In this document: positions 32,636 to 62,705 of the stretch, one piece after another
Numbering within the stretch: position 1 is the first letter of the stretch
Layout of the letters: every line of letters starts with the position of its first letter
Source of the DNA: a virus
Direction: 5' to 3' (one strand)
IMG/VR virus record: IMGVR_UViG_3300008117_000025
Location: 96,001 to 160,000 of that record
Length of the DNA stretch: 64,000 nucleotides
The notes under the pieces: generated by a model
The model's database searches: none
What the model was told of the DNA's origin: nothing
Seen by the model: only the letters and a program-made list of their open reading frames with translations
Translations under genes and position numbers: made by a program

Positions 32636-33165
32636 TATTGATGCAAATTTTTAATTTTGTTATTTAAATGATTTACCATTTCGGAAATTTTACCAATGTT
32701 ATTTTGGGTAGCTTTCCAATATTTTATTCCTTCTTCACCTTCACTTAATTCTTGCTTCATGCGAGAAGTATATTCTACAATACGATCAATTTCAGCTAAT
32801 TTACGTTTTACTTCACGAATTGCTTTATGTAATTGTTCAGATTTGGTTCTGAATTTTACATCTTTTTTAAACTTAGAATATGTTACTTCGTTAAGTAATT
32901 CTTGCTCGATAATTTTTAATAGTGATTCGTTCATAGCAGATTTTTTACCTTTCCATAATTCTTTATAATCAAGCACTTTAGAATTTTTAGGCATTCCTGG
33001 TGCTAATTTCCATCCTGATCTTTGTGCTTGTTTAGTAGCGGCGTTTGGGCCTTGCCCTTTTTTAGCAAATGCTAGTGGAGTAGAATATGCTTCTCCACTA
33101 CCAGTAGTAGACATTTCTTCTAGCTGTTGACGTATTAGGGATTTTATGTATTCTTTTAAATTCAT
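32635..33165 (-). CDS. Hypothetical head-associated protein
   Basis: LKEYIKSLIRQQLEE leader; coupled starts. Confidence 0.75.
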   Translation of the reverse strand: MNLKEYIKSLIRQQLEEMSTTGSGEAYSTPLAFAKKGQGPNAATKQAQRSGWKLAPGMPKNSKVLDYKELWKGKKSAMNESLLKIIEQELLNEVTYSKFKKDVKFRTKSEQLHKAIREVKRKLAEIDRIVEYTSRMKQELSEGEEGIKYWKATQNNIGKISEMVNHLNNKIKNLHQ

Positions 33166-33500
33166 TATTTTAAAGTAACTTCAAATATTATTCCACTTAT
33201 AGGGCTTGTTATTTTTTTAGTTTTAGGATCCTCTACGTGACCAAACTGATGATTAAAAGCAGAAACAGAACATTCAATCACAAATGTTCCTGCTACTTTA
33301 CTAAAATCACTAAGTCTAGATATTTTATGTACATTTATACTATAATCATTGTTAATTTTAATTGGACCCATTTCTCCAACAAAATTATTCATTATATCAC
33401 ATATTTTACTCTTAGGAAGATTTATTTTATATTTTTTCCCAGACTCAAAATTAATTGGAGCTCCTTCTTTTATCCCAGCTAATTCTTGTAGTCTATTCAT
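33165..33500 (-). CDS. Hypothetical head-associated protein
   Basis: MNRLQELAGIKE leader. Confidence 0.75.
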   Translation of the reverse strand: MNRLQELAGIKEGAPINFESGKKYKINLPKSKICDIMNNFVGEMGPIKINNDYSINVHKISRLSDFSKVAGTFVIECSVSAFNHQFGHVEDPKTKKITSPISGIIFEVTLK

Positions 33501-34389: not shown

Positions 34390-36276
34390 TTATTGTACGC
34401 CCTTGATATTTTTTTCATCTAATAGTGATGGTTCTTGTTCAGGTTTGAACACTAATTCTTTGCGAACTATATTCATACCTTCAAACAAATGCTTATTTCT
34501 TTTCAATTCATTTAATGCTAATGGTGAACCACCTTTTGGTGTTCCTTCACCAGTTTCATTAGGAGTTGATAAAGTATTATTAGCTATCTTACCTGTTCTG
34601 TCCTTACCTAATGGATCTTGTTGTGTTCCAACTATAGATGCTCTTTCTTTAGGACGACCAGGTTTTTTCTCATCATATCCAGCAGGTACAGGACCATTAT
34701 CGTTCATTCCTGATCTGCCTTTACCATATAATGATGCTAAATCGTGTGGTGTACCAAATGATCTACCTGTTTTAGCTGGGTCGTTGCCTTCATTTTCAAT
34801 TTGAGCTAAACGGAATACGCGTTTTTTATCTTCAATCATTAAATCACGGTATTCATCAAATTCATCTTCACTAAATTGGAATATTTTATCATAAATCCAA
34901 TCTGAAGGGAGTAAATTGGTATCCTGGATTGATTTAGCTAGGTCAACTTTTTCCTTCCATAATGCTATTTTTTCTTGTTCGTAGATTATAGATGGAACTG
35001 TTAAAGATAATTCAAAGTTTGACAATGCTTCACCATCATATCCTTGAACATATAAATGCACTAATGCAATTTTATACAATTCAGATAATGCAATACGTTG
35101 AATACGTTCTACTGTGCGAGCGAAGCGAATATCTTCAGCAGCTAATGTAGCTTTACCTTCAAGATCTTTTTCAAATCCAAAGAATGCTTTAGGCACTTTT
35201 AACGCAGCTAACATTTCATCACGTAAGAAATTTACGTCTTCAATTGCATTATATTCAAGACCTTTAATGGTATCAATCTTAGTTGCTGTATCATTACCAC
35301 GAGTTGGAAGATAAAAGTCTTCCATCATGTTTTGTACATTATATTTTAAATTATATTCACCAGTTTGTTGATCAACATATGGAGTTTTCTTCATCTTCTG
35401 CATTATTTTCTGCATGAATCCGTCAACTTCATGTGGTGGAATATTACCAACATTAACAGTGAATACGCGTTTTTCTGGGGCGCGAGTAATACGATGCAAC
35501 AACATTGCATCTTTCATTAGCACATATTGCTTATATGTTTTACGAGCAGGCTCAATGTACGATCTACCATAAGGTAAATAGTTAGCATCAGTTAATAATC
35601 TAAAGTGAGCTACTTCGTAGTTTTCAAGTATAATTTTACCCTCTTTATCTTTAGGACGATCAATCATACTACCACCCATAGCAATAACCATAGGATCGAT
35701 TCTAAAACGTACTAAAGATGGATTGTGAGGGTCTAATCCTTCCTCACGAATCATATCATAAACAGATAATGGTGTTACATTGTATACACCAAATTGATCT
35801 GCTATTTCAAGGTGTAAATAGAAATCACCATATTTACACATGTTTCTAATCCACAACCATAAGTTAAATTCGATGTTTAAAACATCGTAAAATAAATTAT
35901 AAAGAATACGCTGGATATTATCGTCAGCGCTTCTAATTTGTAATATTTCACCTACTTCGTTTTTTAAAGTAGATTCATCAGAAATAATGTCAAGAGTAGA
36001 TGCAATGATTGATTCTGTATCCATAGCTTCATAGTCAGTATACAACTGAATACGAAGTGTTTGGTAATTCATTGTAGGGTTGTATGGCATATTAGCGCCA
36101 TAGCGGTGTAGCTTAGTAAATCTATCAATAAGAGCGTTGGTCTTTACATTACCATATGCTTGAATTTTATCAACATCTATGGTTTTTAATTGATTGCCAC
36201 CAACATTTCTTATAATAACGTCTGTGCTGAAGAGACGTCTTAATCTATCGAATAAGCCTATTTGATTTTCAGCCAT
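34390..36276 (-). CDS. gp20: Portal protein, T4 gp20 family
   Basis: LPYGRSYIEPARK, HRITRAPEKRVF, EDFYLPTRG, TKIDTIKG, ALKVPKAF, EDIRFARTV. Confidence 0.95.
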   Translation of the reverse strand: MAENQIGLFDRLRRLFSTDVIIRNVGGNQLKTIDVDKIQAYGNVKTNALIDRFTKLHRYGANMPYNPTMNYQTLRIQLYTDYEAMDTESIIASTLDIISDESTLKNEVGEILQIRSADDNIQRILYNLFYDVLNIEFNLWLWIRNMCKYGDFYLHLEIADQFGVYNVTPLSVYDMIREEGLDPHNPSLVRFRIDPMVIAMGGSMIDRPKDKEGKIILENYEVAHFRLLTDANYLPYGRSYIEPARKTYKQYVLMKDAMLLHRITRAPEKRVFTVNVGNIPPHEVDGFMQKIMQKMKKTPYVDQQTGEYNLKYNVQNMMEDFYLPTRGNDTATKIDTIKGLEYNAIEDVNFLRDEMLAALKVPKAFFGFEKDLEGKATLAAEDIRFARTVERIQRIALSELYKIALVHLYVQGYDGEALSNFELSLTVPSIIYEQEKIALWKEKVDLAKSIQDTNLLPSDWIYDKIFQFSEDEFDEYRDLMIEDKKRVFRLAQIENEGNDPAKTGRSFGTPHDLASLYGKGRSGMNDNGPVPAGYDEKKPGRPKERASIVGTQQDPLGKDRTGKIANNTLSTPNETGEGTPKGGSPLALNELKRNKHLFEGMNIVRKELVFKPEQEPSLLDEKNIKGVQ

Positions 36277-36298: not shown

Positions 36299-36312
36299 AA
36301 TAAATATTTATT
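36299..36312 (-). promoter_or_regulatory. TATTTATT motif inside the 14-bp palindrome AATAAATATTTATT
   Basis: Between the terminase stop and the portal start. Confidence 0.5.
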
Positions 36313-37891
36313 AACCAAGTACCCATGAAATATCTTCGAATCCCCCACGACCATCATTAATCATGAATGGGTTTTGATATCCACTAGGTACTGTTGGTCC
36401 TCCTATATAACCTGTTTTAGTAATACTAGATACCATAGCCCTGTTTAAATCCATACCCTGCTCATAAAATTTCATTGCAGTATCTCTTGTAAACAAACCT
36501 ATACCTAAAGACATTACTAAATCATCGTTATAACCGTTTTGTGCTTGAGCTTTACCATTTTGCCAAATAAACACACGTAATTCTTCTAATAAACGTTTTG
36601 ATCTAAACACAAAGACCTTCTCTCGAATGTACGACTCCATTTTTGAAACAACAAGGGGTCTTGTTTTGGATGACATTGTAAAACCAGGAACCGTTTGTTC
36701 TTTATCCATTTTATCTAGCCATTTATCTATATGCATTTCACCATAAGCACGAGGTGAATAATATAATTTTTGATATCCTTTTTCTATAATAGTATTAATA
36801 ACGTCCCATCCAACATTCGCATTCTCCACCACGAGCAAAGCATTATTATACTCAGTAGCAACAGAAACAAGCATGTTTCCAAAAGTACGAGTGTCAATTT
36901 GCGATTTATATTCAGCCACTTGCTCACAAGTCGTCGCATCAATGACATGGAAAGCAGAAAAGTCGCTACCATCTCCGCGAGCAACATCAGCACATACAAG
37001 ATACTGCTTACTATAATCAGGATACTGCCAAATCCAATAGTCGCCACCCATAAACCTGCGTTCCACAGGATCTTGTAAATATGTTTCTTCATAAAATGAT
37101 AATAAATCAGGTTCAACTACTGAATTACCAGAACCTAAAAAGTCACATTCATATTCCTGAGCAAATTCTCTAGGTGACATGTTTGTTCTTTCTCTTTGTT
37201 CCCAAGCTTCATCTCTATCTGGATGTAGGCTCCAAGGTAGTTTAATTGCTTTAAAGTCGTTTTTACCTATTTCAGCCTCAGCATACATTCTATGAAACCA
37301 GTTACCTACACCATTTGGAGAAGATAAAGCAATAATTCCTCCACCTGTTGCAATTGTAGGTTTAATACTTGTATAAATTCTATCAATACCCTCAATAAAC
37401 GCAGCCTCATCCACTAATAATAAAGACACGGCGTAGGATCGACCTGCATCTGATGCTGCTGATGTAGCTACAATTTGAGAGTTATTAGCTAATTTAAGTG
37501 ATAATTTATTGTCTGAAACTGGTTTTTGATTGCCTTTTAGCCAGCTAGGTAGGTTATTATACATAAACTGTACCTTTTCAACCATGCCTTTAGCTGTTTC
37601 TTGTTTTGTTGCTATACAAAGTACTGTTTTGTCTTTTTGAAATAACATCATCCACAAAGAAAAACCAGCAACTAATGTTGATATACCTAACTGTCTTGAT
37701 TTATTAATGATACAGAAACGATTATTTCTAAAATCATTTAGTGTTTGTTCCTGGAATGGGTAAAGGTGAAATAAAATTCTGCCTTTGATTGGGTGTGTAA
37801 TATAACAGTATTTACGGAAGAAATGTACAGGATCAGTAGCACACTTAACATATTCCTGTTTAATTATTTCTTTAATATTGGCTTGACTCAT
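36311..37891 (-). CDS. gp17: Terminase large subunit, T4 gp17 family; likely start MSQANIKE at 37891
   Basis: KSRQLGIST (Walker A), LLVDEAAF (Walker B), SSPNG, ADVARGDGSDFS, DDLVMS. Confidence 0.95.
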   Translation of the reverse strand: MSQANIKEIIKQEYVKCATDPVHFFRKYCYITHPIKGRILFHLYPFQEQTLNDFRNNRFCIINKSRQLGISTLVAGFSLWMMLFQKDKTVLCIATKQETAKGMVEKVQFMYNNLPSWLKGNQKPVSDNKLSLKLANNSQIVATSAASDAGRSYAVSLLLVDEAAFIEGIDRIYTSIKPTIATGGGIIALSSPNGVGNWFHRMYAEAEIGKNDFKAIKLPWSLHPDRDEAWEQRERTNMSPREFAQEYECDFLGSGNSVVEPDLLSFYEETYLQDPVERRFMGGDYWIWQYPDYSKQYLVCADVARGDGSDFSAFHVIDATTCEQVAEYKSQIDTRTFGNMLVSVATEYNNALLVVENANVGWDVINTIIEKGYQKLYYSPRAYGEMHIDKWLDKMDKEQTVPGFTMSSKTRPLVVSKMESYIREKVFVFRSKRLLEELRVFIWQNGKAQAQNGYNDDLVMSLGIGLFTRDTAMKFYEQGMDLNRAMVSSITKTGYIGGPTVPSGYQNPFMINDGRGGFEDISWVLG

Positions 37892-37894
37892 ATA

Positions 37895-37902
37895 TATAAA
37901 TA
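37895..37902 (-). promoter_or_regulatory. Putative late-promoter motif TATTTATA
   Basis: 3 nt before the terminase ATG, just after a hairpin. Confidence 0.45.
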
Positions 37903-37911
37903 TATAAGGGA

Positions 37912-37934
37912 AGCCCAATCTTATCGATTGGGCT
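37912..37934 (-). terminator. Terminator-like hairpin
   Basis: AGCCCAATC-GATAA-GATTGGGCT; weak U-tract. Confidence 0.6.
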
Positions 37935-37955
37935 CGCGTATGGGCATGCAAGAGT

Positions 37956-43822: not shown

Positions 43823-44353
43823 TTATGCTTCTGCTGGTGGTGGAGTTTCTTCGGCTGGCGCTTCAGGAGCTGGTTCTTCAGCTGGAGGTGTAGTTTCTGG
43901 AGCGCCTGCGGCTGCTGTAAATGCTTCAGCACCAGCATCAGCTTTAGGTGCTTCACCGCCACCTTCTTCTTTATCACCAACAGCATAATTTAATTCTAAT
44001 AAATCAGCTATTCCTTGTTGTGCTCTTTCTAATTCACCTAATTGTTGCATATTATATCTCTTACCAGCTACTTTTGCTGTGTAATTTTTCTTGCCGTCAT
44101 ACACAATTGTGAATTCTTGTTCGTTAATTAATTTGAGGTTGAATGTAGTTGGTTTTGGAGCAACTAAATTAACTTCAGTAATAAAACGACCAAATGATGG
44201 AGACATTAAGTCTTCTACAATCTTTTTTAAACCAGGAAAACGATATATTAAATACATAGATTTAGCAGCACGTTGCTCTCTTGCTTCTTGTTCTGCTAGA
44301 GCTTTACGCACTGCCACTTTAATATATTTCTCTAATAATATTTTTTTACTCAC
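43823..44353 (-). CDS. Hypothetical head-associated protein
   Basis: [12 protein letters not shown] leader; acidic Pro/Ala tail. Confidence 0.75.
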
Positions 44354-44717
44354 TATCTGAATTTTGGCTATATTGGATTTCTTCCTCAGTTAGATATTCA
44401 GCTATACTATGCATATAATCTGAAGCTAAGGTAATATATGCTGATACCCATCCAGGCAATTGTTGGTTGGGTTCAATTAATTGATATATTTTAGCAGCAT
44501 TATTAACCATATCTCTTAATTCACTTTTAGCCATTGTAGCTTCGTGATCTTGAGTTGGAGGCCAACTTAAGTGGCCTTCTCTCATCTTTTTAGCTATTGC
44601 TTGACGGCGCTTTAAAAGATATTTATCTGTCTTATCCTGTTTTCCATCATTGTTGATGTCGGCATCTTCTTTGCCCACAGGATCAAGATTTTCTAATAAA
44701 TCAATGAGTTTAATCAT
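44346..44717 (-). CDS. Hypothetical protein with MIKLIDLLE leader and EF-hand-like [11 protein letters not shown] loop
   Basis: Visible in the translation. Confidence 0.75.
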
Positions 44718-46507: not shown

Positions 46508-49138
46508 TTATTTCTTTTTTTCGTTTATGTGTTTGCGTAGTAATTCTTTAAATTCTGTTAAGTGACTTGGATTGCGGTCAAAATATTCATTTACAATATA
46601 ACGATGAATTTCTGCCAAATTACGTTGTTGTAAGGCTTGTAGTAAATTAGCAGGTGAATCTAACCTTACTAGGGTATTCTGTATAATAAGGAAATGATTA
46701 TTTCCAGGTTGGATTACAACAGATAATACATTTGTATTGTTATTTAATCGAATATTATATATAGCACTTTGTCCACTTTCATATACTTGGTTAACCCTAC
46801 CTCTTCCACCTATTAGATTTTGGCGGCGAGCAACACCTCTATTACCTACTGTAATACCTGGTAACCAGTTTCTTGGCCAGTTTCTTATTATGAAGTTAGC
46901 AGTAGTGAGAGTAGCAGGGATTCCAGCATTTTGAAAAATATCTCCTATTCCAACTTCTCCTTCTGCAGGTGCAGCGGCTTGTTGAGGACGAGGAGCATTT
47001 GGTTGTCCTGCTGGTCTACCTCTTCTTGCAATACCACCTACTTGAGCAGCTATTTGACCAGCTGCTGGTTGTCCTTGTCCTAGTAATTGTCTTGCTAATG
47101 CGCTAGGTACATTTGCTTTAACTAATTTACCTGATTGATCAGATACTTTAAAGCTATTTCTTGGATCTGCTGTGTTGATAAGTAAAGCAGTATTACCATT
47201 CATAGCTGGTTTGTATCTGTTAGTATCTGATACTGGTGGGTTGCTAGATATAAAGTCTTTTTTAGAGTTACCAATCATACTAAATCCTTGATTTCCTAAT
47301 AGTGTAGTTAAATCATTATCATTGAATGTTTGATTTGTTGCTCTTAAATAAGCAAAATAGGATCTCCATTCATTAGCATCTAGACTAGTTGAGGTATTTC
47401 TGCTTCTCCAATTATTACCACTATAATCAGCAATTGATCTTTGTTGGCGTGGATTAATAGTAGCAGGCATTAATAAAAATGCTGATCTTTCACCAGAAGC
47501 CGTTAATACTACTGATGGGATATCCCCATATTGTACTATTCTTTGGTTATAAGGAATAGCATTAATAATCGATGTTAAAGCATCTTTATCTATAGTTGCA
47601 GGAATATTTCGTTCATCATCTCTAAATAAATTTAATGCATTTTGCTGGAATGATTCGTTATCTTTAGCATCAGTAAATGCTTGTTGTACTTCTTCATTAT
47701 CAAAGGGAACTGATGTTATTTTTCCGTCTTCACCTACTTTATATGAAGAGAATGAGTTAGAATCTAATACAATTTCTCCACCTTCTACTGGTTTAACTAT
47801 TAAGGCAGAATTTTCATCCTTTTTAGCATTGTCTAATATTTTTGTAATTAAACTTCTATCAATAATTTCATCTTGAGCTAATTTCAATAGATTTCTTATA
47901 GGGATTTTATCTAGTTCTGGGTAGTCAATAAGATATTTTGATGTACGTTTGTTTAATTTGATGTTGGGGAAATCATCTTCGGCTTGGTATAATCCTATTT
48001 TAATATCATCTCCCAATTCTAATTTAACTATAGTATCACCTTCTTTATTAATATATACTCTTTCATCAGACTCTAAATACCATTTATTTAATTGAGTTAT
48101 AAGTTTTTTAACATCAAATGGAATCTTTTCTTGCGAAAGGTATTTTAAAGGAATTTCATTTTGGAGATTTGCTGTTATTGATCTTCTAATTTGATTTGGG
48201 AACTTATCTAAATTTTTCAATAAAGTAACAGAATCAATAACACCAGGGGATTCAGCTATAAATTTAGCTAATTCAGGATATTTAGGTAAATATTTTTCTA
48301 CAAATTCTTCATCACTAATATCAGAAAACAATTCATTACTTCTATTATTTTTTCTAACTACTAAGTATTGTTGTTTTGCTGAAAAGGGGAATTTAGTCCA
48401 TTCTCTATAACCTACAGATTGATTTCTGTATTGTTGGGTCATTTTTTCAGTTGAAGAAATAGGGATATACTTTAAAATAGATTTAATATTTGGTATATCT
48501 CTTAACCAAGGAACTTCACTTAACAACCCATCAAAATCCATTGGATTTGATTCGTGAGGAGAATTTTTTCTATTTGTATAAACGTATCTTTCATTTTCAT
48601 TAGTTGTTTTAGGATCTCTAACTTGAATAGCAACAAAACTTAATTTATCGCCATCTGAAAGATTATTATTTTTTGCTAGATAAAATGTTGGATAAGATCT
48701 GTATGCACTATAACGATAGCTAGGGAATGAGGATCTAGTTATACACCATTTTTCTCCATCACCGTATCTAATACAGTTATCTTGTTTACTACCATTATAT
48801 ATAACAATAGTATTATCGTCATTATGATATACAACATCTGGGGTGATATCTAGTTCTTCAACACCTTCTTCACCTTTAGTTGCAGTAACTAATCTAATGA
48901 ATTTAGCTATAGACCATTTATTTAAATCTCTTTGATCGCTAGGTAATTTTTCCTTAATACGATCAAAAGTATTGATATATGCTCTTAATTGGTCATCTGT
49001 GATTTGAATATTAAGATCATCAGCTTCTTCTTGGAATCTTTTAATAAAACCTTTTATAGCGTTTTCGCCATAAGCTTCATTAAGCTCATTTTTCCAATTG
49101 TGTACAACGTGTAATATAAATCTATCTATATTTCTCAT
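46508..49138 (-). CDS. 876-aa putative head-internal protein with a CxxYGxGxxWCI domain
   Basis: NCIRYGDGEKWCIT...YPTFY; same domain occurs twice in 51660..55736. Confidence 0.8.
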   Translation of the reverse strand: MRNIDRFILHVVHNWKNELNEAYGENAIKGFIKRFQEEADDLNIQITDDQLRAYINTFDRIKEKLPSDQRDLNKWSIAKFIRLVTATKGEEGVEELDITPDVVYHNDDNTIVIYNGSKQDNCIRYGDGEKWCITRSSFPSYRYSAYRSYPTFYLAKNNNLSDGDKLSFVAIQVRDPKTTNENERYVYTNRKNSPHESNPMDFDGLLSEVPWLRDIPNIKSILKYIPISSTEKMTQQYRNQSVGYREWTKFPFSAKQQYLVVRKNNRSNELFSDISDEEFVEKYLPKYPELAKFIAESPGVIDSVTLLKNLDKFPNQIRRSITANLQNEIPLKYLSQEKIPFDVKKLITQLNKWYLESDERVYINKEGDTIVKLELGDDIKIGLYQAEDDFPNIKLNKRTSKYLIDYPELDKIPIRNLLKLAQDEIIDRSLITKILDNAKKDENSALIVKPVEGGEIVLDSNSFSSYKVGEDGKITSVPFDNEEVQQAFTDAKDNESFQQNALNLFRDDERNIPATIDKDALTSIINAIPYNQRIVQYGDIPSVVLTASGERSAFLLMPATINPRQQRSIADYSGNNWRSRNTSTSLDANEWRSYFAYLRATNQTFNDNDLTTLLGNQGFSMIGNSKKDFISSNPPVSDTNRYKPAMNGNTALLINTADPRNSFKVSDQSGKLVKANVPSALARQLLGQGQPAAGQIAAQVGGIARRGRPAGQPNAPRPQQAAAPAEGEVGIGDIFQNAGIPATLTTANFIIRNWPRNWLPGITVGNRGVARRQNLIGGRGRVNQVYESGQSAIYNIRLNNNTNVLSVVIQPGNNHFLIIQNTLVRLDSPANLLQALQQRNLAEIHRYIVNEYFDRNPSHLTEFKELLRKHINEKKK

Positions 49139-49536
49139 TACTTTGTTTTACCCCATTTTTTACCCTTACCAGGATCTGAACATTGTGAAGGTGTTGGGCG
49201 GCAGGAAGGGTATTTTGCTCGCGTTTCACCTTTTTTACGGCCACAAGGTTTACATTTTTTCTTACCGTCTACCTCGCGACATGTATTACAATCAACCCAA
49301 CCTCCTGTTTTACCAGGTGCACCTTTGCGTTTAAACCAAGTGCGAAGGGTTTCTTTTTTTTTCTCGTCTAATTGATCAATAAGTTCTTCTTTTAATCCTT
49401 TCCAAATATTACCTTTACGGCAACGTACAATAGCACCTGACTTATAGGCAGATGGCTTATCATATTTGCGATCGGCAATTCGTTTGCAACGATCTTCGTT
49501 AAGAATTTCTTTCGCTATGTCGGTTAATTTGATCAC
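49138..49536 (-). CDS. Basic Cys-rich protein (GTG start) with MIKLTDIAKEILNE leader
   Basis: CKRIADRKY...SAYKSGAIVRCR, LRTWF, CGRK...YPSCRP. Confidence 0.75.
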   Translation of the reverse strand: MIKLTDIAKEILNEDRCKRIADRKYDKPSAYKSGAIVRCRKGNIWKGLKEELIDQLDEKKKETLRTWFKRKGAPGKTGGWVDCNTCREVDGKKKCKPCGRKKGETRAKYPSCRPTPSQCSDPGKGKKWGKTK

Positions 49537-49539
49537 TTT

Positions 49540-50010
49540 TTATATATTAAAAAAATATAATAATTGATTTTTCCCATTAATTTTGACCATCTCTAAATTA
49601 TCTGTTGTTCCTGTATATCCTGCATTCATCATTGTATTGATGTTGTTCATGTTTCCTTTATATGCATCCTGTACACCTCTTATAAAATAGGATTCAACAA
49701 AATTATCTTGAAAATCTTCATGTTTAGGATGCCAATCTATAGCATCTTTATATAATTCATGAAGTATTTTAGGATTATTATCTAAAAAAACTATATATTC
49801 TACATCATTAGTTAATACCTTGTATGGTTTATTATCCCAATTCCACTCAGAAATCCATTCATCTTCATTTTCATCTTCATCATACCCTATTAGATGTCCT
49901 AAATCTTGAACAATTAATTGTTTTAATATAGAAGATACCTCTGAATTTTGTTGAAGTTGTCCTGTGGGGGATATTTCAAGTTCTTTTAATATGTCTAATA
50001 ATTTAATCAT
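49540..50010 (-). CDS. Hypothetical protein; likely start MIKLLDILKE at 50010
   Basis: Leader motif sits right after the upstream stop. Confidence 0.7.
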   Translation of the reverse strand: MIKLLDILKELEISPTGQLQQNSEVSSILKQLIVQDLGHLIGYDEDENEDEWISEWNWDNKPYKVLTNDVEYIVFLDNNPKILHELYKDAIDWHPKHEDFQDNFVESYFIRGVQDAYKGNMNNINTMMNAGYTGTTDNLEMVKINGKNQLLYFFNI

Positions 50011-50011
50011 A

Positions 50012-50389
50012 TTACCATTTTCTGCAAGACCAATATCTTGCTTTTGTACGTGGTCCTGGGTTGGCACAGTTATGTCTTGCTCTAAAGGCAGCGCGGCGTT
50101 TAGGATTATTTTTCTTAATGTTCATTCCCTTAGCACCAAAGTTTACTTTTACAACTTTACCTGTTTTAGGGTTTTTAACATATACCTTAAACTTTTTAGA
50201 ATCACCACGCATTGGTTTACCTAATGGTACAGTACGACCTTGATACTTAGCTTCTAACATGCAATCGCAATCAGCTTCGTTAAGTTCGTTTTGATATTCT
50301 TCCATGAATTGAACAAATTCTAAAATGTCTTGTTCATTTTCAACGTCGTACTCTTCTACTTCGTCTATTATTTCTAATAACTTAATCAT
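50012..50389 (-). CDS. Basic domain behind an acidic leader
   Basis: MIKLLEIIDE...MLEAKYQGR...KKFKVYV...FRARHNC...ARYWSCRKW. Confidence 0.8.
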   Translation of the reverse strand: MIKLLEIIDEVEEYDVENEQDILEFVQFMEEYQNELNEADCDCMLEAKYQGRTVPLGKPMRGDSKKFKVYVKNPKTGKVVKVNFGAKGMNIKKNNPKRRAAFRARHNCANPGPRTKARYWSCRKW

Positions 50390-51659: not shown

Positions 51660-54600
51660 TTATTGATATATCTCGTTGTTTTGTTTGCCAAAATCTCTTA
51701 ATAATATTCCTGCTTTAGCGTTTGCTTCGTTTTCAATTTCACTACCTGTTTTTCCACTTTCATAACTAATTCGTCCGTCTAAATTTTGTTTATGATGAAC
51801 TAATTCATGTGCTAATGTTCTTAATATATCAGCCATGTTTCTATTCTTCACATAAACCCATATTTTATTATCATTCGGATCAAAATAACCAAAACTGCGT
51901 CTGTCTTTTACTTGATTAGTATCGTAGGAGAGGGTTAAGCTACGAGGAGGATTCTGGATTGCCAAATTTTTGCATGCATATTTTATAAATTCTCCAATAG
52001 TACCTGTTTCACTTTCGTCTAAACGTTGTAATTTAGATTTTAAACCTTCATTCATTAATTTTATTTTAGCTAATTCTTTTCTATATTCGTCTACTAATTG
52101 TTTAACTTCTTCCATATATTCTTTTAAAAGGCCTAATTCTTCAGAATTTATATTCCAATCATTAAGAACATCTTTTAATGTAATTCCAGGAGGAGCAAGA
52201 CTCATTAAAATATTATCAGCAAATTTTTTATATTCATCTTTTATATCGCTTCCTGCTTTTACAATTCGGTTTTGTGATATATAAGAGGTTGCATATCTGT
52301 CCTCTTTTTTTACATATTTAAGTGTAGCTATAATTTTGTAAGATTTTATTTTACCACTTAAAATATCATCAATTTTATTATCAGCAGTTTTAATATATCT
52401 AAAAACATATTGTTTATCCCGAAATCCTTCTTGATAATTTTTACCATTCTTATAATCGTAACTATCATTAAGATTACCTAATAAACTATTGTATTTTTTA
52501 TCTAATTCATATTCTGCTTTTTCTTTAGGATCTACTTCTACATCTTTAAATATATTTTTTAAACCTTTAAGTCTAGGATACTTATCTTCTATATTCTTAA
52601 AGAAAGAATAGAAATCTTCCCCCGGATTATCAGCTGTTGTTACAGTGTAATGGTCTATCCCATTATCTGAATACATATTATAGTTAGCATCAACGAATTC
52701 CCCATTTGGGTCAGGATGGACAAATATTACTAATAGATGTGTTATATCTACAAAATTTCCATTTTTATCTTGTTCAGATGATTTTGTATCATCAAATACA
52801 AAGTATGGTGTGCCACTTTCTTCATATCTATAATCATAATATAAATTATCATCACCACGAGCTGAAATACAAAATGAATAGCCATTGCCATATTTAATAC
52901 AGGCATTTTTAGTTTTACCTACATATATTCTTAATCCGTTTTGGTTATAAACTAGATTAGCATCTTTACTAGGTTCACCATCATTTATTTTACCTGCCTT
53001 AATACGCTTTGGTTGATTAGCATCAACTGTAGTTTCTAAATCTTTCCAGTTATATTTAGTAATATCTTTTTCAGTTACTCTAGGACTATCCTTAATTTGA
53101 CTAAAGCGATTAATATATGATTGAATAATATTTACTCCTAAATTAGGTTTTTCTTGTTGAAATTTAGCAGTTAAATCATTAACTAATTTGTTAGAATATT
53201 CATTGATAGAAGTTTCATTTATTAATTTTAACTTAAGTATTTCTCTATCATATTTGTTTGATATTTCAATATAGGTTGATAAAATTTCTTCATGTTCATC
53301 ATCGAGGGGTACCAATTTATATTCTAACTTTGGTGTTAGGTTTAATTTTTTTACATTATCAATCCAACCACTTATATTTTTTTCAAATTCTTTTTCATTT
53401 TTAGCAACTGCATAATTTTTTTGAATAGTCATATATGGATTTAGTTGTCCGTTTTTTTTATCATAAGCTAATAATCGGTAAAAATATAATTGTAGTTCTC
53501 CTTTTAATAATTTAGTTGCTGTAGATTTACCACTCTTAGTATCTTTACCACTTATAATACTCAATGCTGGGTATTCATCAAGAAGATTATCTAGTTTTTT
53601 TTCTTTTTGTCGTTCAAGATTATATATTTTAACATCAATATCACTATCCCCTATAGGTTTATATTGTAATATATTTTTTAATCCATTAAGTTGGGGATAT
53701 ACTTCTGCCATTTCTTCAAAAGTACTAAAAAGCTCTTCACCAGCATTGTTTGCTTCTGTAACAGAAAATGCTTCTCCTTCCTCAACCAATATTACCAATA
53801 AATGAGTAGGATCTATAAAACCATTTTTACCTTTATCACTAGATCTACTATCATCAAATACAAAATATATAGATGCTGGGCCTGACTCTTCATATGATCC
53901 TTCTTCTGATCCTACTCTGTATCGAGCATATAAATTTCTTGAACCACGAGCTGAAATGCAGAAACTATATCCATTACCATACTTTATACAGGATTTTTTA
54001 GATCCACCTTCATATACCCTAATATTATTTTGATTATATAGTAACTCAGCGTTAGTAACATCTCCATCATTTAATTTACCTGCTTTAATACGTTTTGATT
54101 GTAGATTATCTTTTATTGTATCTTCTAAATCACTCCATGAATATTGAAAAATATCACGTTTATTTGCAGATAAATTATTTTTAATCTGATCAAAACGTTT
54201 AATATATTCTTTTACCTGTTCAGTCGATAGTTCAGGATTTTCTTGTGTGAATTTGTCTGTTAGTTGGCTAATAACCTTTTCAGAATATTCTTTTAATGGT
54301 TCAGCAGGTGGTTGTTCAGCAGGAGCCGGTTCTGGTTTGGGTTCTTCTTTAGATTCTTTACCCATTGCTAATAGGAAATCAGCTACTTCAACACCATCAG
54401 GTAAGAATTTTTTAATTTCTTCCTCATTACCATCGCGTATTGCTTTTCTAAGATCAGTAGCATTTAAACCACCAAAATTACCAGCATCGAATATTTTTGC
54501 GTTAGAATATTTACTTAAATTTTTATATCTATCTTCTTCACCTTTACCATAAGCAGCATATACTGTTACCTCAGGATTATTTTCTACAAAATCATATACA

Positions 54601-55736
54601 TCTTTAACAGGTGTAACAGCTGATACTCTTATTTCTACTTTATCACCGTCTACTAATTGGTCTTTGTATAATTCCCAAGCAGCAACACTCTCATCAGGTG
54701 AAATACCATCATGTATTTTAGGTGAAACTAATACTACTACTTGATCTGCTTTATTAAGTAATTGTTTTACTACACTAAAGTGACCTTTATGTGGTGGTTT
54801 GAATTTGCCTGGAAATAGTGCTATTGTTGTTTCACTTTGTTCAAGTAGCAATGATGCAATGTATCTACCTAGGTTAGTTTCACTTAGCATTGAATTTACT
54901 TTATCTAATGATTTTTGTTTATTATCGCCTTTTGGCGTATTTACTTCACCACTTTTAATAGATACCATCGAGTTAAAAACGCCTTTAATGCGGTTTTTAG
55001 AGCGTGGATTTTGTACCTTAGATGATATATTATTTAACAGTTCCTCGAAGCTACCGTCTATTTTGTAGTTGGTAAATAGCTTTTTGATATTAGACCAATT
55101 GCTAGTTTTCCATACTTCGGTACGATCAGTTTCTTTAAAATTATCTAACGTTACGATACGTAATGTTAAACCGGCGCTTGATAAGTTAAATTCATATTCT
55201 TGATTTGCTTCTAGTACAGGTACATTTTTTATACCCATACGAGCAAATATTGATTTAGGATCTTCCTCTAGACATATTACCTTAGCTAATCCTAATAATA
55301 GTCCTTGTATTTCAGCAGGATAATCTAAAAATTCTTTCTTGAATTCAGCTTCATCATCACTAACAGAAACAATATTATCTATTTGAACGTATTGATCTGG
55401 TTGGTCTTCTATAGGATATAGTATGGTAATAATTTCACCTGTGTTGAGGTATTTTTTACCTTTATATTTTTCACTTTTAAAGGGAATAATAACGTCGTCT
55501 GGTAGTGCTGATAGGAATTTAGCTAGCTCTACTTTAATATTTTTCTTGTCTGTTGCTTCTAAATTAACAATTAAGTCAATATCACCAAAATCTTCTTTAG
55601 CGCTTGTATTATATGAACCTGAAATTTTAGCACTTTTAAAAGCAGGAAATTTCTTTAATATCCTGTTGATATAATTATCTGTTGTTTTAGCAACAGAAGC
55701 TCTAGTAATCCTATTTCCACCGGCTGATCCTGACAT
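51660..55736 (-). CDS. 1358-aa multi-domain protein: Pol-beta nucleotidyltransferase, HIGH-family nucleotidyltransferase, two CxxYG repeat domains, HExxH zincin
   Basis: ISGSY...GDIDL; FPGKFKPPHKGH...ATDLR; 2x CIKYGNGYSFCISARG; RTLAHELVHHKQ. Confidence 0.8.
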   Translation of the reverse strand: MSGSAGGNRITRASVAKTTDNYINRILKKFPAFKSAKISGSYNTSAKEDFGDIDLIVNLEATDKKNIKVELAKFLSALPDDVIIPFKSEKYKGKKYLNTGEIITILYPIEDQPDQYVQIDNIVSVSDDEAEFKKEFLDYPAEIQGLLLGLAKVICLEEDPKSIFARMGIKNVPVLEANQEYEFNLSSAGLTLRIVTLDNFKETDRTEVWKTSNWSNIKKLFTNYKIDGSFEELLNNISSKVQNPRSKNRIKGVFNSMVSIKSGEVNTPKGDNKQKSLDKVNSMLSETNLGRYIASLLLEQSETTIALFPGKFKPPHKGHFSVVKQLLNKADQVVVLVSPKIHDGISPDESVAAWELYKDQLVDGDKVEIRVSAVTPVKDVYDFVENNPEVTVYAAYGKGEEDRYKNLSKYSNAKIFDAGNFGGLNATDLRKAIRDGNEEEIKKFLPDGVEVADFLLAMGKESKEEPKPEPAPAEQPPAEPLKEYSEKVISQLTDKFTQENPELSTEQVKEYIKRFDQIKNNLSANKRDIFQYSWSDLEDTIKDNLQSKRIKAGKLNDGDVTNAELLYNQNNIRVYEGGSKKSCIKYGNGYSFCISARGSRNLYARYRVGSEEGSYEESGPASIYFVFDDSRSSDKGKNGFIDPTHLLVILVEEGEAFSVTEANNAGEELFSTFEEMAEVYPQLNGLKNILQYKPIGDSDIDVKIYNLERQKEKKLDNLLDEYPALSIISGKDTKSGKSTATKLLKGELQLYFYRLLAYDKKNGQLNPYMTIQKNYAVAKNEKEFEKNISGWIDNVKKLNLTPKLEYKLVPLDDEHEEILSTYIEISNKYDREILKLKLINETSINEYSNKLVNDLTAKFQQEKPNLGVNIIQSYINRFSQIKDSPRVTEKDITKYNWKDLETTVDANQPKRIKAGKINDGEPSKDANLVYNQNGLRIYVGKTKNACIKYGNGYSFCISARGDDNLYYDYRYEESGTPYFVFDDTKSSEQDKNGNFVDITHLLVIFVHPDPNGEFVDANYNMYSDNGIDHYTVTTADNPGEDFYSFFKNIEDKYPRLKGLKNIFKDVEVDPKEKAEYELDKKYNSLLGNLNDSYDYKNGKNYQEGFRDKQYVFRYIKTADNKIDDILSGKIKSYKIIATLKYVKKEDRYATSYISQNRIVKAGSDIKDEYKKFADNILMSLAPPGITLKDVLNDWNINSEELGLLKEYMEEVKQLVDEYRKELAKIKLMNEGLKSKLQRLDESETGTIGEFIKYACKNLAIQNPPRSLTLSYDTNQVKDRRSFGYFDPNDNKIWVYVKNRNMADILRTLAHELVHHKQNLDGRISYESGKTGSEIENEANAKAGILLRDFGKQNNEIYQ

Positions 55737-56707
55737 TATGCTTTTTCTTTTTGGTAAGGAATTAATTTAGAATTATCAGGTAAGAATTTACCTTTTAATC
55801 CTAGTCTATCTTGGTTATCAATCCAATATTTTTGTAAATTATCAGGTATATCTGCTCTAGTTGAGTCAAGTATTTTAAGATATCTATCCATAATAGAATT
55901 ATATTCTTCTTTGGATATATTTTTTCTTATATAATCTTCTAATTTGAAATAATCATCAAGAATATCTTGAGTTAAATTAAAACCGTATAATTTATTTAAT
56001 AGAGCGATTGCTTCTTTAGGATTAGATGCTTCCTGCTTACCTGTTTCCTTATCTAAAACACCAGTAGTATGACCAAATGTTTTACCTTTATTAGCAAATA
56101 AAGCTAACATTAATTGTGTACGATGTAATCCTTTAACATTGCCCTCATATGATTGAGAATAATAACTAAAACGTAACCATTCAGGATTACCTACATTAAT
56201 ATCGGTTTGAACTGCTTTACCTACTTTTTCACCGTCAGGTCCGTATTGAGGTATAGCACAAAATATAGAGCCGGCACCTGATGCTTTAAGATCAACTTCA
56301 ACGTCAGGTAAAGCATCGTTAATTTTATCTCCAATCAATACAATCATAGCACGTAATTGGAGTTTTTCAGGAGTAGCGGTTCTAGCTTTTTTAGTAAATT
56401 GAGCTAAAAGTTCATTATATTTGTTTTCATCTACACCCCAGCCTTTAAAGTCAGGTTTTCCACCAGGAAATATATTTTGAATATCATATGATAAATCAAT
56501 ATCACCTGACACGGCTTTTTTACCAGCAGATCCTAATTTTTCAAATGCTTTAAACGTTGATGCCTTTGCAGGAAATATTTTAGATAATTGATCTACAAAT
56601 TTTTCAATTGTAGGTTCAATATTGTCTTTTTCAATTGAATCGGTAGTACCAAATACATTACCACCTTCTAACAATATTTGTTTAGCTATTTTTAATAATT
56701 GGATCAT
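55736..56707 (-). CDS. Pol-beta-superfamily nucleotidyltransferase with MIQLLKIAKQILLE leader
   Basis: EGGNVF...LGSAGKKAVSGDIDL...VQTDINV. Confidence 0.75.
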   Translation of the reverse strand: MIQLLKIAKQILLEGGNVFGTTDSIEKDNIEPTIEKFVDQLSKIFPAKASTFKAFEKLGSAGKKAVSGDIDLSYDIQNIFPGGKPDFKGWGVDENKYNELLAQFTKKARTATPEKLQLRAMIVLIGDKINDALPDVEVDLKASGAGSIFCAIPQYGPDGEKVGKAVQTDINVGNPEWLRFSYYSQSYEGNVKGLHRTQLMLALFANKGKTFGHTTGVLDKETGKQEASNPKEAIALLNKLYGFNLTQDILDDYFKLEDYIRKNISKEEYNSIMDRYLKILDSTRADIPDNLQKYWIDNQDRLGLKGKFLPDNSKLIPYQKEKA

Positions 56708-57972: not shown

Positions 57973-58445
57973 AAATTAAGATTGATTGTTAATGAGATTG
58001 ATTGTTCGTTGTTTGTTTTGATTAAATTACCTCTTGTTTTTTGGTAGTAGATAGATGGTTGCGCAAGTACATCACCTATTGCCAATTTGATTTCACCTTT
58101 ATTTATCTTACGTAAGTAAACTAAGTCGATTATATCTCTAGAATTTTCAAATATATCAGCATACCCTTGGAATCCAACTGCTGATATTCTGTCTCCTACT
58201 CTATTATATGATACGTTTAATGTATTTTTATTTTTATGGAAATTTAAACCACTGTTAATAACGTATTTTGATTGGCCTTGTAATTGGCGTTTTATACCAT
58301 TTACTTTAACTTCAGAATTAGTTAAAGCTGTATTTGTGTAAAAATCTAACCACTCATTTACTTTTTTACGAATTTCAAATTCAACACCATAAATTATAGC
58401 TGATTTGGGGTTGGTGAATTTCACCTGATTTAGGATAAAATTCAT
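57969..58445 (-). pseudogene. C-terminal fragment of the TonB-dependent receptor
   Basis: YGVEFEIRK, LQGQSKYVINSGL, C-terminal aromatic/hydrophobic beta-signal-like ISLTINLNL; frame-shifted from 58381..60123. Confidence 0.75.
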
Positions 58446-60123
58446 ATTTAAGATCTAAATTATAGATATCTGATTTTTCTAGATTAGGATTACCTAATAA
58501 TTGGGCGTTTCTAACAAAATCATAATAAGCAAAGTTAGCTACTTCTCTAAATTCAGGACGAGATAATGTTTTGCTAGCTGATATGCGGTATTTGGTTTTA
58601 TCTAAATTATAAGATAAATTTAATGATGGTAAAACATCTAAATATTTTCTATTTACATTTACTTTAGTACCGCTAAAATCAGCTGTATTGACATTAAATA
58701 GATTATATTCAGTTCTTAAACCAGTATTTAATTTCCATTTCCCAAATTCATTATCGTACATTGCATATCCATTTGCTAAATCAAAATCAGCTACATACTT
58801 ATCTGTATTGTTTGTGATTTCATTTAGCATATCTGCTGCTTCATATCTGAATATTCTGGCTTTAAAGTTTCTTGTTCTTTTAAGGTATCCACCACCAACT
58901 TTAACTTTATTAAATGATTTATTTAAATTACCATTAAAGCTATTTTCATCCATTACACTCCAAAAACGGTATGTATCTCTCCAGGCTACAGCATAAGGTT
59001 CATTTATACTTAATGATTTTGTAATTGGATTTACTCTATAGTCAGGTTGATCACGTAACATTAAATTATAACCTAAGTTAAAATCTAATGTTTTAATTTT
59101 ACCTTCAAATTGAGAATTTACAACAGTTTTAATAATGTGATTAGAAGCATTACTTCTTACATTTTGAACATTATCATAATTTTCACCATTACGAGTTAAA
59201 TATGATTGTTCAATTTGATGATTAAATAATGTCTTTAAGCTATATTTATTTTTACCTGTATAAGTAATATTAGCTAAACCATTTAATAGTGTTGTTTTAG
59301 TAAATAGTGTATCTTTATACTTATATGCTAATTCGGTTGATGATTGATAATCTTGTCTATCAATATAATTTAAAGAGTAAGTATTTCTAGCTGTGGAGCT
59401 AAATAAGAAATTCCAATTATTTTTCTTTAAACCAAAAGACAAAGATCCATTTGTATTAGGAATAGATGTAAATTGTTTAGCCTGAGGAGAATTAATTAAC
59501 TTAGTATATGCTCTTTTATCTCCATTACTGCTTATGCGGTATTTGTAAGTGGAAGGGAACATTGAAGGGAACTGAATAGATTCCACCAAGTTGAATTTTT
59601 GAGATGTAGACACCACTCCATAACTTGACCCCAGGCTTAAAGAAAAAAAATTGCTAGAAACATCTTTAGTAGCAATTTGAATAACACCACCAGCAAAATC
59701 TCCAGGCAAATTAGCAGTAGCCGATTTGGCTACAATTATATTGTCTATTAATCCTGAAGGTATAATATCGAATGAGAATGCTCTGCGATCAGGTTCAGTT
59801 GATGGTAGGTAGGTTTTATTTAGTAAAGCTAAATTATATCTATCAGCTAAACCACGTACTAATACGAATTTATCGTTTTGAATTGTAACACCATTTACTC
59901 TTTTAAGAGCATCACCTACTGTACGATCTGGTGTTTTTTTAATAAATTCAACTGATAGGCCATCAGAAATAACGGAGCTGTTCCTAATTGTGTTAAGAAC
60001 AGCTACGTTGGTTTCTTTTTTAGTTACGGAACGAACCGTAATATTGTCTAATTTTTTGTTAAATAGTGTGTCTTGAGAAAATAAAAATACAGGACACAAT
60101 AACAAGAATAATAAATGTTTCAA
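58381..60123 (-). pseudogene. TonB-dependent outer-membrane receptor, N-terminal part (TTG start), frameshifted
   Basis: Signal peptide; plug motifs GDALKRVNGVTIQNDKFVLVRGLADRYN and FSFDIIPSGLIDNI; LSRPEFRE, GNPNL. Confidence 0.85.
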
Positions 60124-61912: not shown

Positions 61913-62334
61913 TCTTTAGTAAAGAATTTACCTAGTATATTATCATTGTATGATCTGTCCTTTCCAATCAGAACTTCTTCTTTACACTGGAAATGCATTT
62001 CGTAATATGTTAATGCTTTTTTAGTTTTGCATTGTATTAGGATCCAACGATCAAAATTTTCCTCGCCATATTCCTTAATATCAGTAAGTAATTGTTTATT
62101 AGACCCCCAATATTTTTGCCAATCGCTTTCAGTACGAATTATTTCGTGAGTTGGTTTGCGACCTGGGCCAGTTTGTTCAGCAAGTTGTTTTTTAGTGAGT
62201 TTGTGTTTTTTATTATTCCAAAACACTTTTTTACCAATATAAAATTTACCTGTTTTTAAATTGGTAATTTTATAAACAAAACCATAATATTTTTCGGGAT
62301 TAGGTATATCCCAACTTTTCCACTTGTGTATCAT
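61903..62334 (-). CDS. GIY-YIG nuclease (Seg-like)
   Basis: GFVYKITNLKTGKFYIGKK, YWGSN, YYE, YNDNI. Confidence 0.8.
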   Translation of the reverse strand: MIHKWKSWDIPNPEKYYGFVYKITNLKTGKFYIGKKVFWNNKKHKLTKKQLAEQTGPGRKPTHEIIRTESDWQKYWGSNKQLLTDIKEYGEENFDRWILIQCKTKKALTYYEMHFQCKEEVLIGKDRSYNDNILGKFFTKDLL

Positions 62335-62705
62335 ATTTCAACTATCCAAATAGATGGATCTATTCCTTTATTTATTAATCCTGACAGTCTGGTATTTCCA
62401 GCTAACAGATCATAGTCTTGATCATTAAATTTTACTGCTATAGGTATTTCTACTTTATTTTGATAAAATGATTTATTAAATCTATCTTTTTTAGGTTCTT
62501 CTAATTTGTTAAAATTTAAATCTATATTACCTAATACATCTTTAATTTTAGAATATTTTATAATGTATCCTTGATTAGCTATTTTTTTCCATTCCTCCTT
62601 TCCCATTTTTTTAAGTTCTGGATATCTGATAGCTTCTTCCCACTCAATGTCGAAATTGGGTTTAGTGTATTTTATTTCTTTTAAAAGATTTAATAGCTTA
62701 ATCAT
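62331..62705 (-). CDS. ParB/Srx-like small protein with MIKLLNLLKE leader
   Basis: PIAVK...DLLAGNTRL resembles the ParB IxDGxHR motif. Confidence 0.6.
   Translation of the reverse strand: MIKLLNLLKEIKYTKPNFDIEWEEAIRYPELKKMGKEEWKKIANQGYIIKYSKIKDVLGNIDLNFNKLEEPKKDRFNKSFYQNKVEIPIAVKFNDQDYDLLAGNTRLSGLINKGIDPSIWIVEI

Follow-up and report, generated by a model that had tools for sequence, protein, structure and literature searches.

A modular phage protein with head protease-type motifs at its joints: a candidate for packaging in the head and injection

Why would a phage join a nucleotidyltransferase, an adenylyltransferase, two copies of a large module and a zinc peptidase in a single chain, and why do the joints between these parts look like sites of a phage head protease? 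The questions are raised by P0001, a protein of 1358 amino acids (aa), and its smaller neighbour P0002, both encoded in bases 96001-160000 of the virus record IMGVR_UViG_3300008117_000025, a complete record of 182,846 bp with direct terminal repeats. This stretch of 64,000 nucleotides is called the window, and coordinates refer to it unless another sequence is named; almost all window genes are carried by its minus strand. An earlier note on this DNA had proposed that P0001 is delivered with the virion. As far as sequence can tell, P0001 is a real, conserved, modular protein whose joints carry the motif of the head protease, and we lean, with modest confidence, towards the reading that it is a polyvalent protein packaged in the head, processed by a gp21-type protease and injected.

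A coupled gene pair and its modular family

The two open reading frames (ORFs) described in the earlier note were both found. They share base 55736, which gives TAATG translational coupling, and such coupling of a P0002/P0001-type pair was seen at more than 15 related loci. The HKGH (residues 316-319, 54780-54791) and HELVHH (residues 1310-1315, 51792-51809) motifs were in the places given for them, and CIKYGNGYSFCISARG was present twice. The internal repeat is real, with 46% identity over 261 residues (expectation value, E, 2e-66). The pair and the parts of P0001 are laid out as follows.

55736-56707, minus strand: P0002, 323 aa, a putative Pol-beta-type nucleotidyltransferase behind a leader of 14 residues (MIQLLKIAKQILLE)
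56666-56707, minus strand: leader of P0002 (residues 1-14), ending in ILLE right before GGNVF
51660-55736, minus strand: P0001, 1358 aa, 154.8 kDa, candidate polyvalent protein
54879-55736, minus strand: domain A (residues 1-286), nucleotidyltransferase with Pol X-like palm and thumb
54840-54878, minus strand: A-B linker (residues 287-299, TNLGRYIASLLLE), between the MLSE and LLLE sites
54327-54839, minus strand: domain B (residues 300-470), HIGH-family adenylyltransferase of NMNAT/PPAT type
54288-54326, minus strand: Pro/Glu-rich linker (residues 471-483), ending in PLKE before C1
53214-54287, minus strand: C1 (residues 484-841), first copy of the C module, ending in KLKLINE
53199-53213, minus strand: C1-C2 joint TSINE (residues 842-846), with a second L/I-x-E site right before YSNK
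52047-53198, minus strand: C2 (residues 847-1230), second copy of the C module, ending in KIKLMNE
51663-52046, minus strand: domain D (residues 1231-1358), minimal ImmA/IrrE-like gluzincin with HELVHH and a downstream EIENEAN

An AlphaFold2 model of residues 1-480, built from 30 homologues, had a mean predicted local distance difference test (pLDDT) of 89. Values below 50 were seen at residues 287-301, which form one disordered stretch, and at 464-470. The model of residues 846-1358, covering C2 and D, reached a pLDDT of 85.

Among 366 longer homologues, the family core was A+B+D, with no, one or two C modules or another middle domain. Other family forms were A alone (about 280 aa), A+B (about 475 aa), A+D (428 aa), B+C+D (about 820 aa) and C-C-D followed by DUF5661 (1221 aa). 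A ParB-like middle domain was suspected in homologues of 750-790 aa and dropped; Pfam gave no ParB match. Two natural fusions were observed: a protein of 1535 aa (L022:6004-10611) runs from a leader through a P0002-like domain, A, B and further domains to a zincin, and one of 493 aa (L018:1608-3089) has B ahead of a P0002-like domain, with the joint ..LIRKLILE↓GGNVF (the arrow marks the position of a possible cut). We take these fusions as Rosetta-stone evidence that P0002, A and B would work together.

Protease-type sites at the joints

The boundary sites of P0001 are MLSE (residues 283-286), LLLE (296-299), PLKE (480-483), KLKLINE (835-841) with SINE (843-846), and KIKLMNE (1224-1230). Each boundary had been said to carry an L/I/M-x-E site; all of them are there, and they exceed chance. 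The whole protein holds 14 [LIM]-x-E sites, compared with about 18.5 expected from its composition, and half of the 14 fall inside the 73 residues of the four domain boundaries, as defined by homology and model confidence (binomial P = 3.2e-6). The domain interiors are depleted, with 7 sites where 17.5 were expected (P = 0.004). In T4, gp21 cleaves behind L/I-x-E, and the internal proteins and Alt are brought into the head by N-terminal capsid-targeting sequences of 10-20 residues (PMC9026906, PMC5694885, PMC3012670); Alt is trimmed at ITE-6 and LTE-619 (PMC5694885). The sites of P0001 are thus of the kind found in T4 head cargo, and they stand where cleavage would free intact modules.

The protease-site reading is strongly backed by the relatives, in which leaders are gained or lost exactly at x-E. 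The usual start of domain A is MSGxxGG; in three homologues it is instead MILLE↓SG or MILNE↓SG, and the joint between the P0002-like part and A in the 1535-aa fusion reads QTLTE↓SGSIGANRI. In every one of these arrangements, cleavage behind the Glu would thus restore the invariant Ser-Gly start of A. Homologues of P0002 read MIKL..[IV]LxE↓GGNVF. Leaderless forms that start MGGNVF occur in an IMG/VR relative (L039) and in a phage of Flavobacterium, vB_FspM_immuto (immuto), the sole cultured relative of the P0001 locus; a further P0002-like protein (L040) has an unrelated leader that ends LLSE↓GGNVF. The MLSE and LLLE sites around the A-B linker are conserved across the family, and the linker itself, TNLGRYIASLLLE, corresponds to MNLGxYIAxxLLE, the N-terminus with which free-standing proteins of the D, C and B+C+D types begin. 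We therefore read the A-B linker as a retained leader.

The C modules gave the clearest count. In 122 of 124 proteins that start with C, [LIVMF]-x-E lay within two residues of the domain start, and in 85 it lay exactly there, for a background of 2% per position. The leaders ahead of free-standing C modules are 6-43 residues long (e.g., MKILITESQ.. and MKLIDTY..), and internal C copies retain the L-x-E↓YS joint whichever domain stands upstream. For D, a site was found within 40 residues upstream in 102 of 103 distinct stretches, a loose test in which about 0.8 chance sites are expected; by eye, most have [LMV]-x-E↓[GS] 10-14 residues ahead of the D fold, regardless of the preceding domain. The search for free-standing, leader-bearing homologues that had been suggested thus found them for C, D and P0002 types, with leaders that end in [LI]-x-E at the domain start.

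Leaders of this kind are also present on neighbouring genes in the window.

49138-49536, minus strand: small gene with a MIKL leader
49540-50010, minus strand: small gene with a MIKL leader, ATG start
50012-50389, minus strand: small gene with a MIKL leader
62331-62705: gene with a MIKL-type N-terminal leader
44346-44717: gene with a MIKL-type N-terminal leader
22447-22827: gene with a MIKL-type N-terminal leader

The MIKL-type leader is common to seven unrelated window proteins, including P0002. In the 183-kb genome, MIKL-type N-termini occur solely at genome coordinates 118-158 kb, i.e., within the window. The earlier suggestion that leader-bearing genes had been fused was right about the MIKL leaders of the neighbours and wrong in taking KLKLINE and KIKLMNE as leader-like relics: free-standing C proteins terminate where these two sequences stand in P0001, so they are the conserved C-terminal ends of the C module.

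The gene at 49138-49536 (minus strand) encodes a small Cys-rich domain (DRCKRIADRKYDKPSAYKSGAIVRCRKG), free-standing here behind its MIKL leader. In P0249 and P0263, this Cys-rich domain precedes the C module, and the joint is VLNE↓YS or ILNE↓YS.

The head protease and the zincin as candidate processing enzymes

Which enzyme would use these sites? The phage has a T4-type head module that includes a protease of the gp21 family.

36311-37951: large terminase
34390-36276: portal protein (Portal_T4, E 1e-63)
29584-30201, minus strand: prohead core protease of the T4 gp21 family (Peptidase_S77, E 8.8e-34; phrog_207, E 5e-54)
26074-27693: Gp23-type capsid protein (E 1.3e-78)

The Pfam Peptidase_S77 match means that the phage encodes its own gp21-family protease, as head cargo processed by gp21 would need, and we propose the product of 29584-30201 as the putative processing enzyme. 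A second leader type, ..(R)MQ(Q/E)LAGI-x-x-E, was observed in small genes around the protease (33165-33500, 32276-32635 and 28994-29599, minus strand). It lies at or near the N-terminus, the genes occupy the position of T4 gp67, gp68 and gp22, and immuto gp188 has the same motif. Between the portal and the prohead protease, a 628-aa protein (30203-32089, minus strand) contains DUF5661 (PF18905, E 9e-10). DUF5661 is also fused to C-C-D in P0061 (1221 aa), and a DUF5661-like N-terminal sequence was seen by eye before the C module in P0246 and P0330. These occurrences hint that DUF5661 may be a head-internal or targeting domain.

The other peptidase in reach is domain D. It has an HExxH helix, a third-ligand Glu on a later helix and a zincin core fold, and downstream of HExxH it shows, like ImmA/IrrE, a conserved E-x-E-A-N motif. 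Its closest viral relatives in BFVD are annotated 'IrrE N-terminal-like' (E 1.7e-9). The HELVHH domain, which had been called a zincin, can be described further as a minimal ImmA/IrrE-like gluzincin. D-type domains form the tail of amidoligase, AAA and cytidyltransferase proteins in BFVD, and they are fused to NT5C and NTP_transf_2 in Atlas clusters.

With such an intact active site, D might cut the polyprotein itself and the leaders of its neighbours in trans, before packaging or after injection, with no part for the head protease. D is the commonest partner of the other modules, both in the A+B+D core and in the amidoligase, AAA and NT5C fusions, and the conserved x-E↓G/S site lies in cis, 10-14 residues upstream of it. 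Cleavage behind Glu is not known to us for any zincin of the ImmA/IrrE or Wss1 kind. Autoprocessing by such domains was predicted by Iyer et al., and P1 DdrB is processed before packaging (PMC5512222). The site motif, however, matches that of T4 gp21 exactly, in a phage that encodes a gp21 homologue, and the leader-bearing head-core genes next to the protease have the same kind of site. Free-standing D, moreover, often has a removable leader of its own and resembles cargo rather than a processing enzyme. We consider processing by the zincin quite improbable.

Domain A, P0002 and domain B

Domain A has the hG[GS] loop, the DxD motif and the third palm acidic residue of the Pol-beta superfamily, on the palm and thumb fold of Pol X enzymes. 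In 30 sequences with 39-63% identity to the query, G40, S41, D52, D54 and D120 were invariant, as were S2, G3 and G6 of the N-terminus, (M)SGxxGG. The structural matches span only the palm and thumb of the targets (142-338 in Pol beta), and A has no extra N-terminal domain. The assignment of A to the Pol-beta superfamily is therefore confirmed and narrowed to a Pol X-like enzyme with an invariant catalytic triad. Loss of the acidic catalytic residues in homologues, which had been named as a possible refutation, was not seen in A.

The claim of two Pol-beta enzymes was firm for A; for P0002 it is tentative, with shared motifs and a weak profile match behind it. P0002 and A have the motif order GGN, GS, DxD (DID) and VQxDxN in common, and in 11-13 homologues of P0002 the invariant residues were G15, G16, N17, S60, D69, D71, Q167 and D169, together with N171 of the VQxDxN motif (Q167-x-D169-x-N171). 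The comparison of P0002 with A by hhalign was weak (E 0.0019, probability 14%), and another profile comparison gave E 0.012. Direct sequence similarity (BLASTP E 0.12) was too weak to count alone, and P0002 had no Pfam match. Prediction of a complex between A (residues 1-290) and mature P0002, an association through which the P0002 leader might bring P0001 into the head, returned a score of 0.00 and a mark of 0.32, which is no support either way.

Domain B carries HKGH and the second motif NATDLR, i.e., the HxGH and SxxxxR-type motifs of the HIGH family, on a Rossmann-like fold, and it exceeds the Pfam cut-off for CTP_transf_like. The HIGH transferase named in the earlier note is thus an enzyme of NMNAT/PPAT type. 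PPAT, NaMNAT, NMNAT and ATP sulfurylase were all within about 3 Z units as matches of B.

The C module

The C module is a large family: in a library clustered at 50% identity, at least 500 clusters matched at E<=0.001, of which 81 reached E<=1e-30. Two Cys, one His and one Asn are invariant in it, together with several aromatics including Tyr. No PDB match was found, either with the profile against PDB sequences or with Foldseek against PDB (none at E<=0.001), and Pfam gave no family common to 44 members. In VIA structure searches with the C2+D model, the lists were filled by the zincin, so that C was barely covered. A protein-language-model match to PcfJ scored 0.85, below the meaningful level. 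C101/C111, H155 and N192 of the module might conceivably form a thiol-enzyme triad or a metal site. A third copy is encoded in the window.

46508-49138, minus strand: 876-aa protein with a leader ending in ELNE, a third C module and about 500 further residues

The third C module was matched by the profile at E 2e-30 over residues 15-357 and by BLASTP to P0001 at E 1e-11.

Packaged cargo or cytoplasmic enzyme

P0001 could instead be a cytoplasmic multi-enzyme of nucleotide or NAD metabolism, encoded by an auxiliary metabolic or replication-module gene and neither packaged nor cut. L-x-E would then be a folding linker or helix cap, and the leaders would be amphipathic N-terminal helices that serve some other purpose, for instance in assembly or solubility. 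Gene order bears on this. In two metagenomic contigs of about 160 kb the order is primase, exonuclease, P0002-like, P0001-like, a 190-aa protein, leader-bearing small genes and an 875-aa C-module protein, and immuto has the first four of these genes in this order. The immuto homologue gp183 (907 aa; 45% identity to P0001 across 39% of the query) carries the annotation NadR/NMNAT, and genes for NT5C and NAD synthetase are close to it. Free-standing A and A+B proteins without a leader are frequent, P0001 likewise lacks one at its N-terminus, and the fusions of D to NT5C and NTP_transf_2 are also of the kind expected for a cytoplasmic enzyme. The immuto NT5C 5'-nucleotidase (L001 10726-11325), next to the homologue, has a leader-like MKKVMGNLADLLLE ahead of its HAD motif. 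A paper on 7-deazaguanine in immuto (PMC10516641) concerns other genes and has no bearing on P0001 or P0002.

A cytoplasmic role leaves several observations unexplained: one leader is common to unrelated proteins, it comes and goes exactly at x-E, fusions recreate the invariant SG N-terminus behind L-T-E, and the sites are enriched at joints and depleted inside domains. The position near replication genes was weighed with the cyanophages. A 'cytidylyltransferase' of T4-like cyanophages is found in 566 phage records. A profile of 125 P0001-type B domains matches S-SZBM1_140 at E 3e-10, and the B part of the A+B protein P0236 has 41% identity to it (E 5.5e-38). These B-type enzymes begin MRFRQFIIE, MKKFSAFLSE or MKNFHQFITE, close to the T4 IPIII leader MKTYQEFIAE (PMC8442874). 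S-SZBM1_140 and its neighbour 139 were detected by liquid chromatography-mass spectrometry in CsCl-purified virions (PMC9146016), and related enzymes were detected in the virions of S-CREM2 and S-SCSM1 (PMC10665884, PMC9602691). The cyanophage B-type genes adjoin primase/helicase and MazG. Because homologues present in virion preparations (PMC9146016) thus come from the primase side, the replication-side position of P0001 is no argument against packaging. Taken together, we find a purely cytoplasmic P0001 unlikely.

The gene just upstream of the cyanophage cytidylyltransferase (S-SZBM1_141, L046:7478-8671; Syn9 gp183, L044:1303-2265) has a K-x-D-G motif, VKWDGAP or VKYDGAP. The motif looks like that of ligase or capping-type nucleotidyltransferases; were that the case, the place of the Pol X-like pair would be taken there by an enzyme that joins or modifies ends.

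Several points weigh against packaging of P0001. In a conserved gene order, the P0002/P0001 pair immediately follows primase and exonuclease. P0001 begins with MSGSAGGN, which does not vary within the family, and has no N-terminal leader; the targeting sequence of T4 is N-terminal. Within the pair, leader sequences are found only on P0002 and in the internal A-B linker. In the cultured relative immuto, both proteins are leaderless; they would have to be packaged by way of another signal, or are not packaged at all. Abundant soluble enzymes might co-purify with virions, as the cyanophage authors pointed out (PMC10665884), and the L-x-E that precedes YS might serve the C fold as a structural N-cap. 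No promoter motif divides late from early genes here, ATATTTAT being genome-wide. The complete 182,846-bp genome has no Nampt/NAPRTase (PF04095), which the same profile detected in control genomes; B is therefore not part of a self-contained NAD pathway, and such a pathway, with a Nampt partner, is absent. The earlier claim of packaging and injection has thus gained leader-bearing cyanophage homologues in virion proteomes, and for P0001 itself it has to do without an N-terminal leader.

Proposed mechanism and its meaning

The folds with intact catalytic motifs, the gp21-family protease, the conserved boundary sites, the separable leaders and the virion detection of cyanophage homologues of B are established. 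We infer the entry of P0001 into the head, its cleavage by gp21 and the roles of its enzymes. In the scheme that we favour, the P0001 precursor and leader-bearing P0002 of this marine T4-like Bacteroidota phage would be made and built into the prohead core, with the internal leader, domain D or association with P0002 as the possible route into the head. The gp21-type serine protease would then cut P0001 after [L/I/M]-x-E at each module boundary. The predicted products are A, a Pol X-like nucleotidyltransferase of about 32 kDa; B, an NMNAT/PPAT-like adenylyltransferase of about 20 kDa; two C-module proteins of about 41 and 45 kDa; and D, an ImmA/IrrE-like zinc peptidase of about 15 kDa. The pieces would remain in the head, enter the cell with the DNA and act ahead of phage gene expression. 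Our best guess is that A and P0002 transfer nucleotidyl groups to nucleic-acid 3' ends, that B adenylylates a phosphorylated small molecule such as nicotinamide mononucleotide (NMN), and that the purpose is early counter-defence or repair.

A broader and more tentative idea, to which we give rather less than even weight, is that a large clade of marine T4-like phages, from those of Bacteroidota to cyanophages, uses a plug-and-play address code, namely a short amphipathic leader ending in [L/I]-x-E. The leader may stand at the N-terminus or between modules, and any enzyme behind it may be loaded and released with a defined N-terminus. Proteins of the P0001 type may be concatenated cargo in which the retained internal leader serves as an internal targeting signal. 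The C module and the paired Pol X-like transferases may be new classes of injected effectors, which may, within seconds of the start of infection, act on the ends of nucleic acids of host or phage.

If this is true, the T4 rules of a targeting leader and a Glu-specific head protease reach a big, mostly uncultured group of ocean phages, and leaders and x-E joints predict genes for injected proteins, with their exact mature ends, from sequence. Three new kinds of candidate injected protein would be added, i.e., Pol X-like transferases, the C module and ImmA/IrrE-like zincins. There would be a sequence-level reason for the recurrent NMNAT-like enzymes in cyanophage virion proteomes, and the leaders could load foreign proteins into phage heads other than those of coli phages.

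Neighbouring genes and upstream elements

Three genes lie between the exonuclease and P0002 (56770-60123, minus strand): a TonB-dependent-receptor-like protein (58381-60123) with Plug and OMP beta-barrel, a 158-aa ORF, and a 400-aa lipoprotein with the Bacteroidota-type signal MKKLLTLLALVGIFSC. The insert is missing from the syntenic metagenome contigs L002 and L004 and from immuto, and it looks like a host-derived auxiliary cassette. PHROGs and Pfam searches of neighbouring genes gave almost nothing informative.

The 62-nucleotide gap upstream of P0002 (56708-56769) contains AAATATTTATAG and then a perfect hairpin, AGCTTGG GCTGT CCAAGCT, just ahead of the start codon. Genome-wide, ATATTTAT occurs 49 times on the coding strand and 11 times on the other, upstream of all kinds of gene, and it is probably a general promoter element. 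In the same genome promoter scan, TATAAATA was not enriched on the coding strand.

Comparison with known systems

Domain A has the GS...DxD...D catalytic pattern of family X polymerases (Pol beta, Pol lambda, TdT, African swine fever virus (ASFV) PolX), and it is similar in size and layout to the minimal ASFV PolX. Its identity to these enzymes is just 11-15%, however, and it lacks the 8-kDa and fingers domains. Neither a YFTGS-type thumb motif nor a triphosphate-binding Arg can be recognised in A, which has an extra C-terminal helical part and the conserved N-terminal SGxxGGN.

Domain B is homologous to the cyanophage cytidylyltransferases (S-SZBM1_140, S-CREM2 ORF154, S-SCSM1 NMNAT), with the same HxGH and SxxxxR motifs; these carry an I/L-x-E leader. 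The cyanophage enzymes, which have been detected in virions, are 360-440 aa long and consist of a single domain that is extended at its C-terminus; A, C and D are missing from them.

Domain D has HExxH and the downstream E-x-E-A-N in common with ImmA/IrrE (Peptidase M78) and Wss1/SprT, and some homologues are annotated M78. It differs from ImmA/IrrE in falling under the Pfam thresholds (DUF6782, 16.3 bits for a cut-off of 27), in having no partner Xre-type repressor, and in being a C-terminal tail on many unrelated phage enzymes.

As a whole, P0001 is most likely a variant of two known kinds of protein, the T4 internal proteins with Alt and the polyvalent proteins. Polyvalent proteins such as P1 DdrB and the N4 virion RNA polymerase (Iyer et al. 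2017, PMC5512222) consist of two to many unrelated domains, as does P0001. They have a zincin-like metallopeptidase as a hub, belong to phages with portal and terminase, and are predicted to be injected with the DNA; P0001 likewise combines disparate domains around a zincin hub, and its phage encodes portal and terminase. The Pol-beta domains of Iyer et al., however, are minimal nucleotidyltransferases of firmicute elements rather than a Pol X-like palm and thumb, and no mention of HIGH-family enzymes or of the C module was found in their text, as far as it was searched (PMC5512222). The joints of P0001 also fit the head protease motif rather than zincin autoprocessing.

The T4 internal proteins IPI-III and Alt have in common with this system a T4-type portal, a gp21-family protease, a gp23 capsid and a variable set of cargo, together with short N-terminal leaders that end in L/I-x-E on unrelated proteins. 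The cargo differs, being, as predicted, nucleotidyltransferases and a zincin here and an ADP-ribosyltransferase or nuclease inhibitors in T4, and the leader sequences differ too (MIKL.., MNLG.., MK[IL]LITE.. here). T4 Alt is likewise an enzyme and is cut at both ends, whereas P0001 would be a 155-kDa precursor of several fused cargo modules, whose internal joints bear the sites and, in one case, a retained leader.

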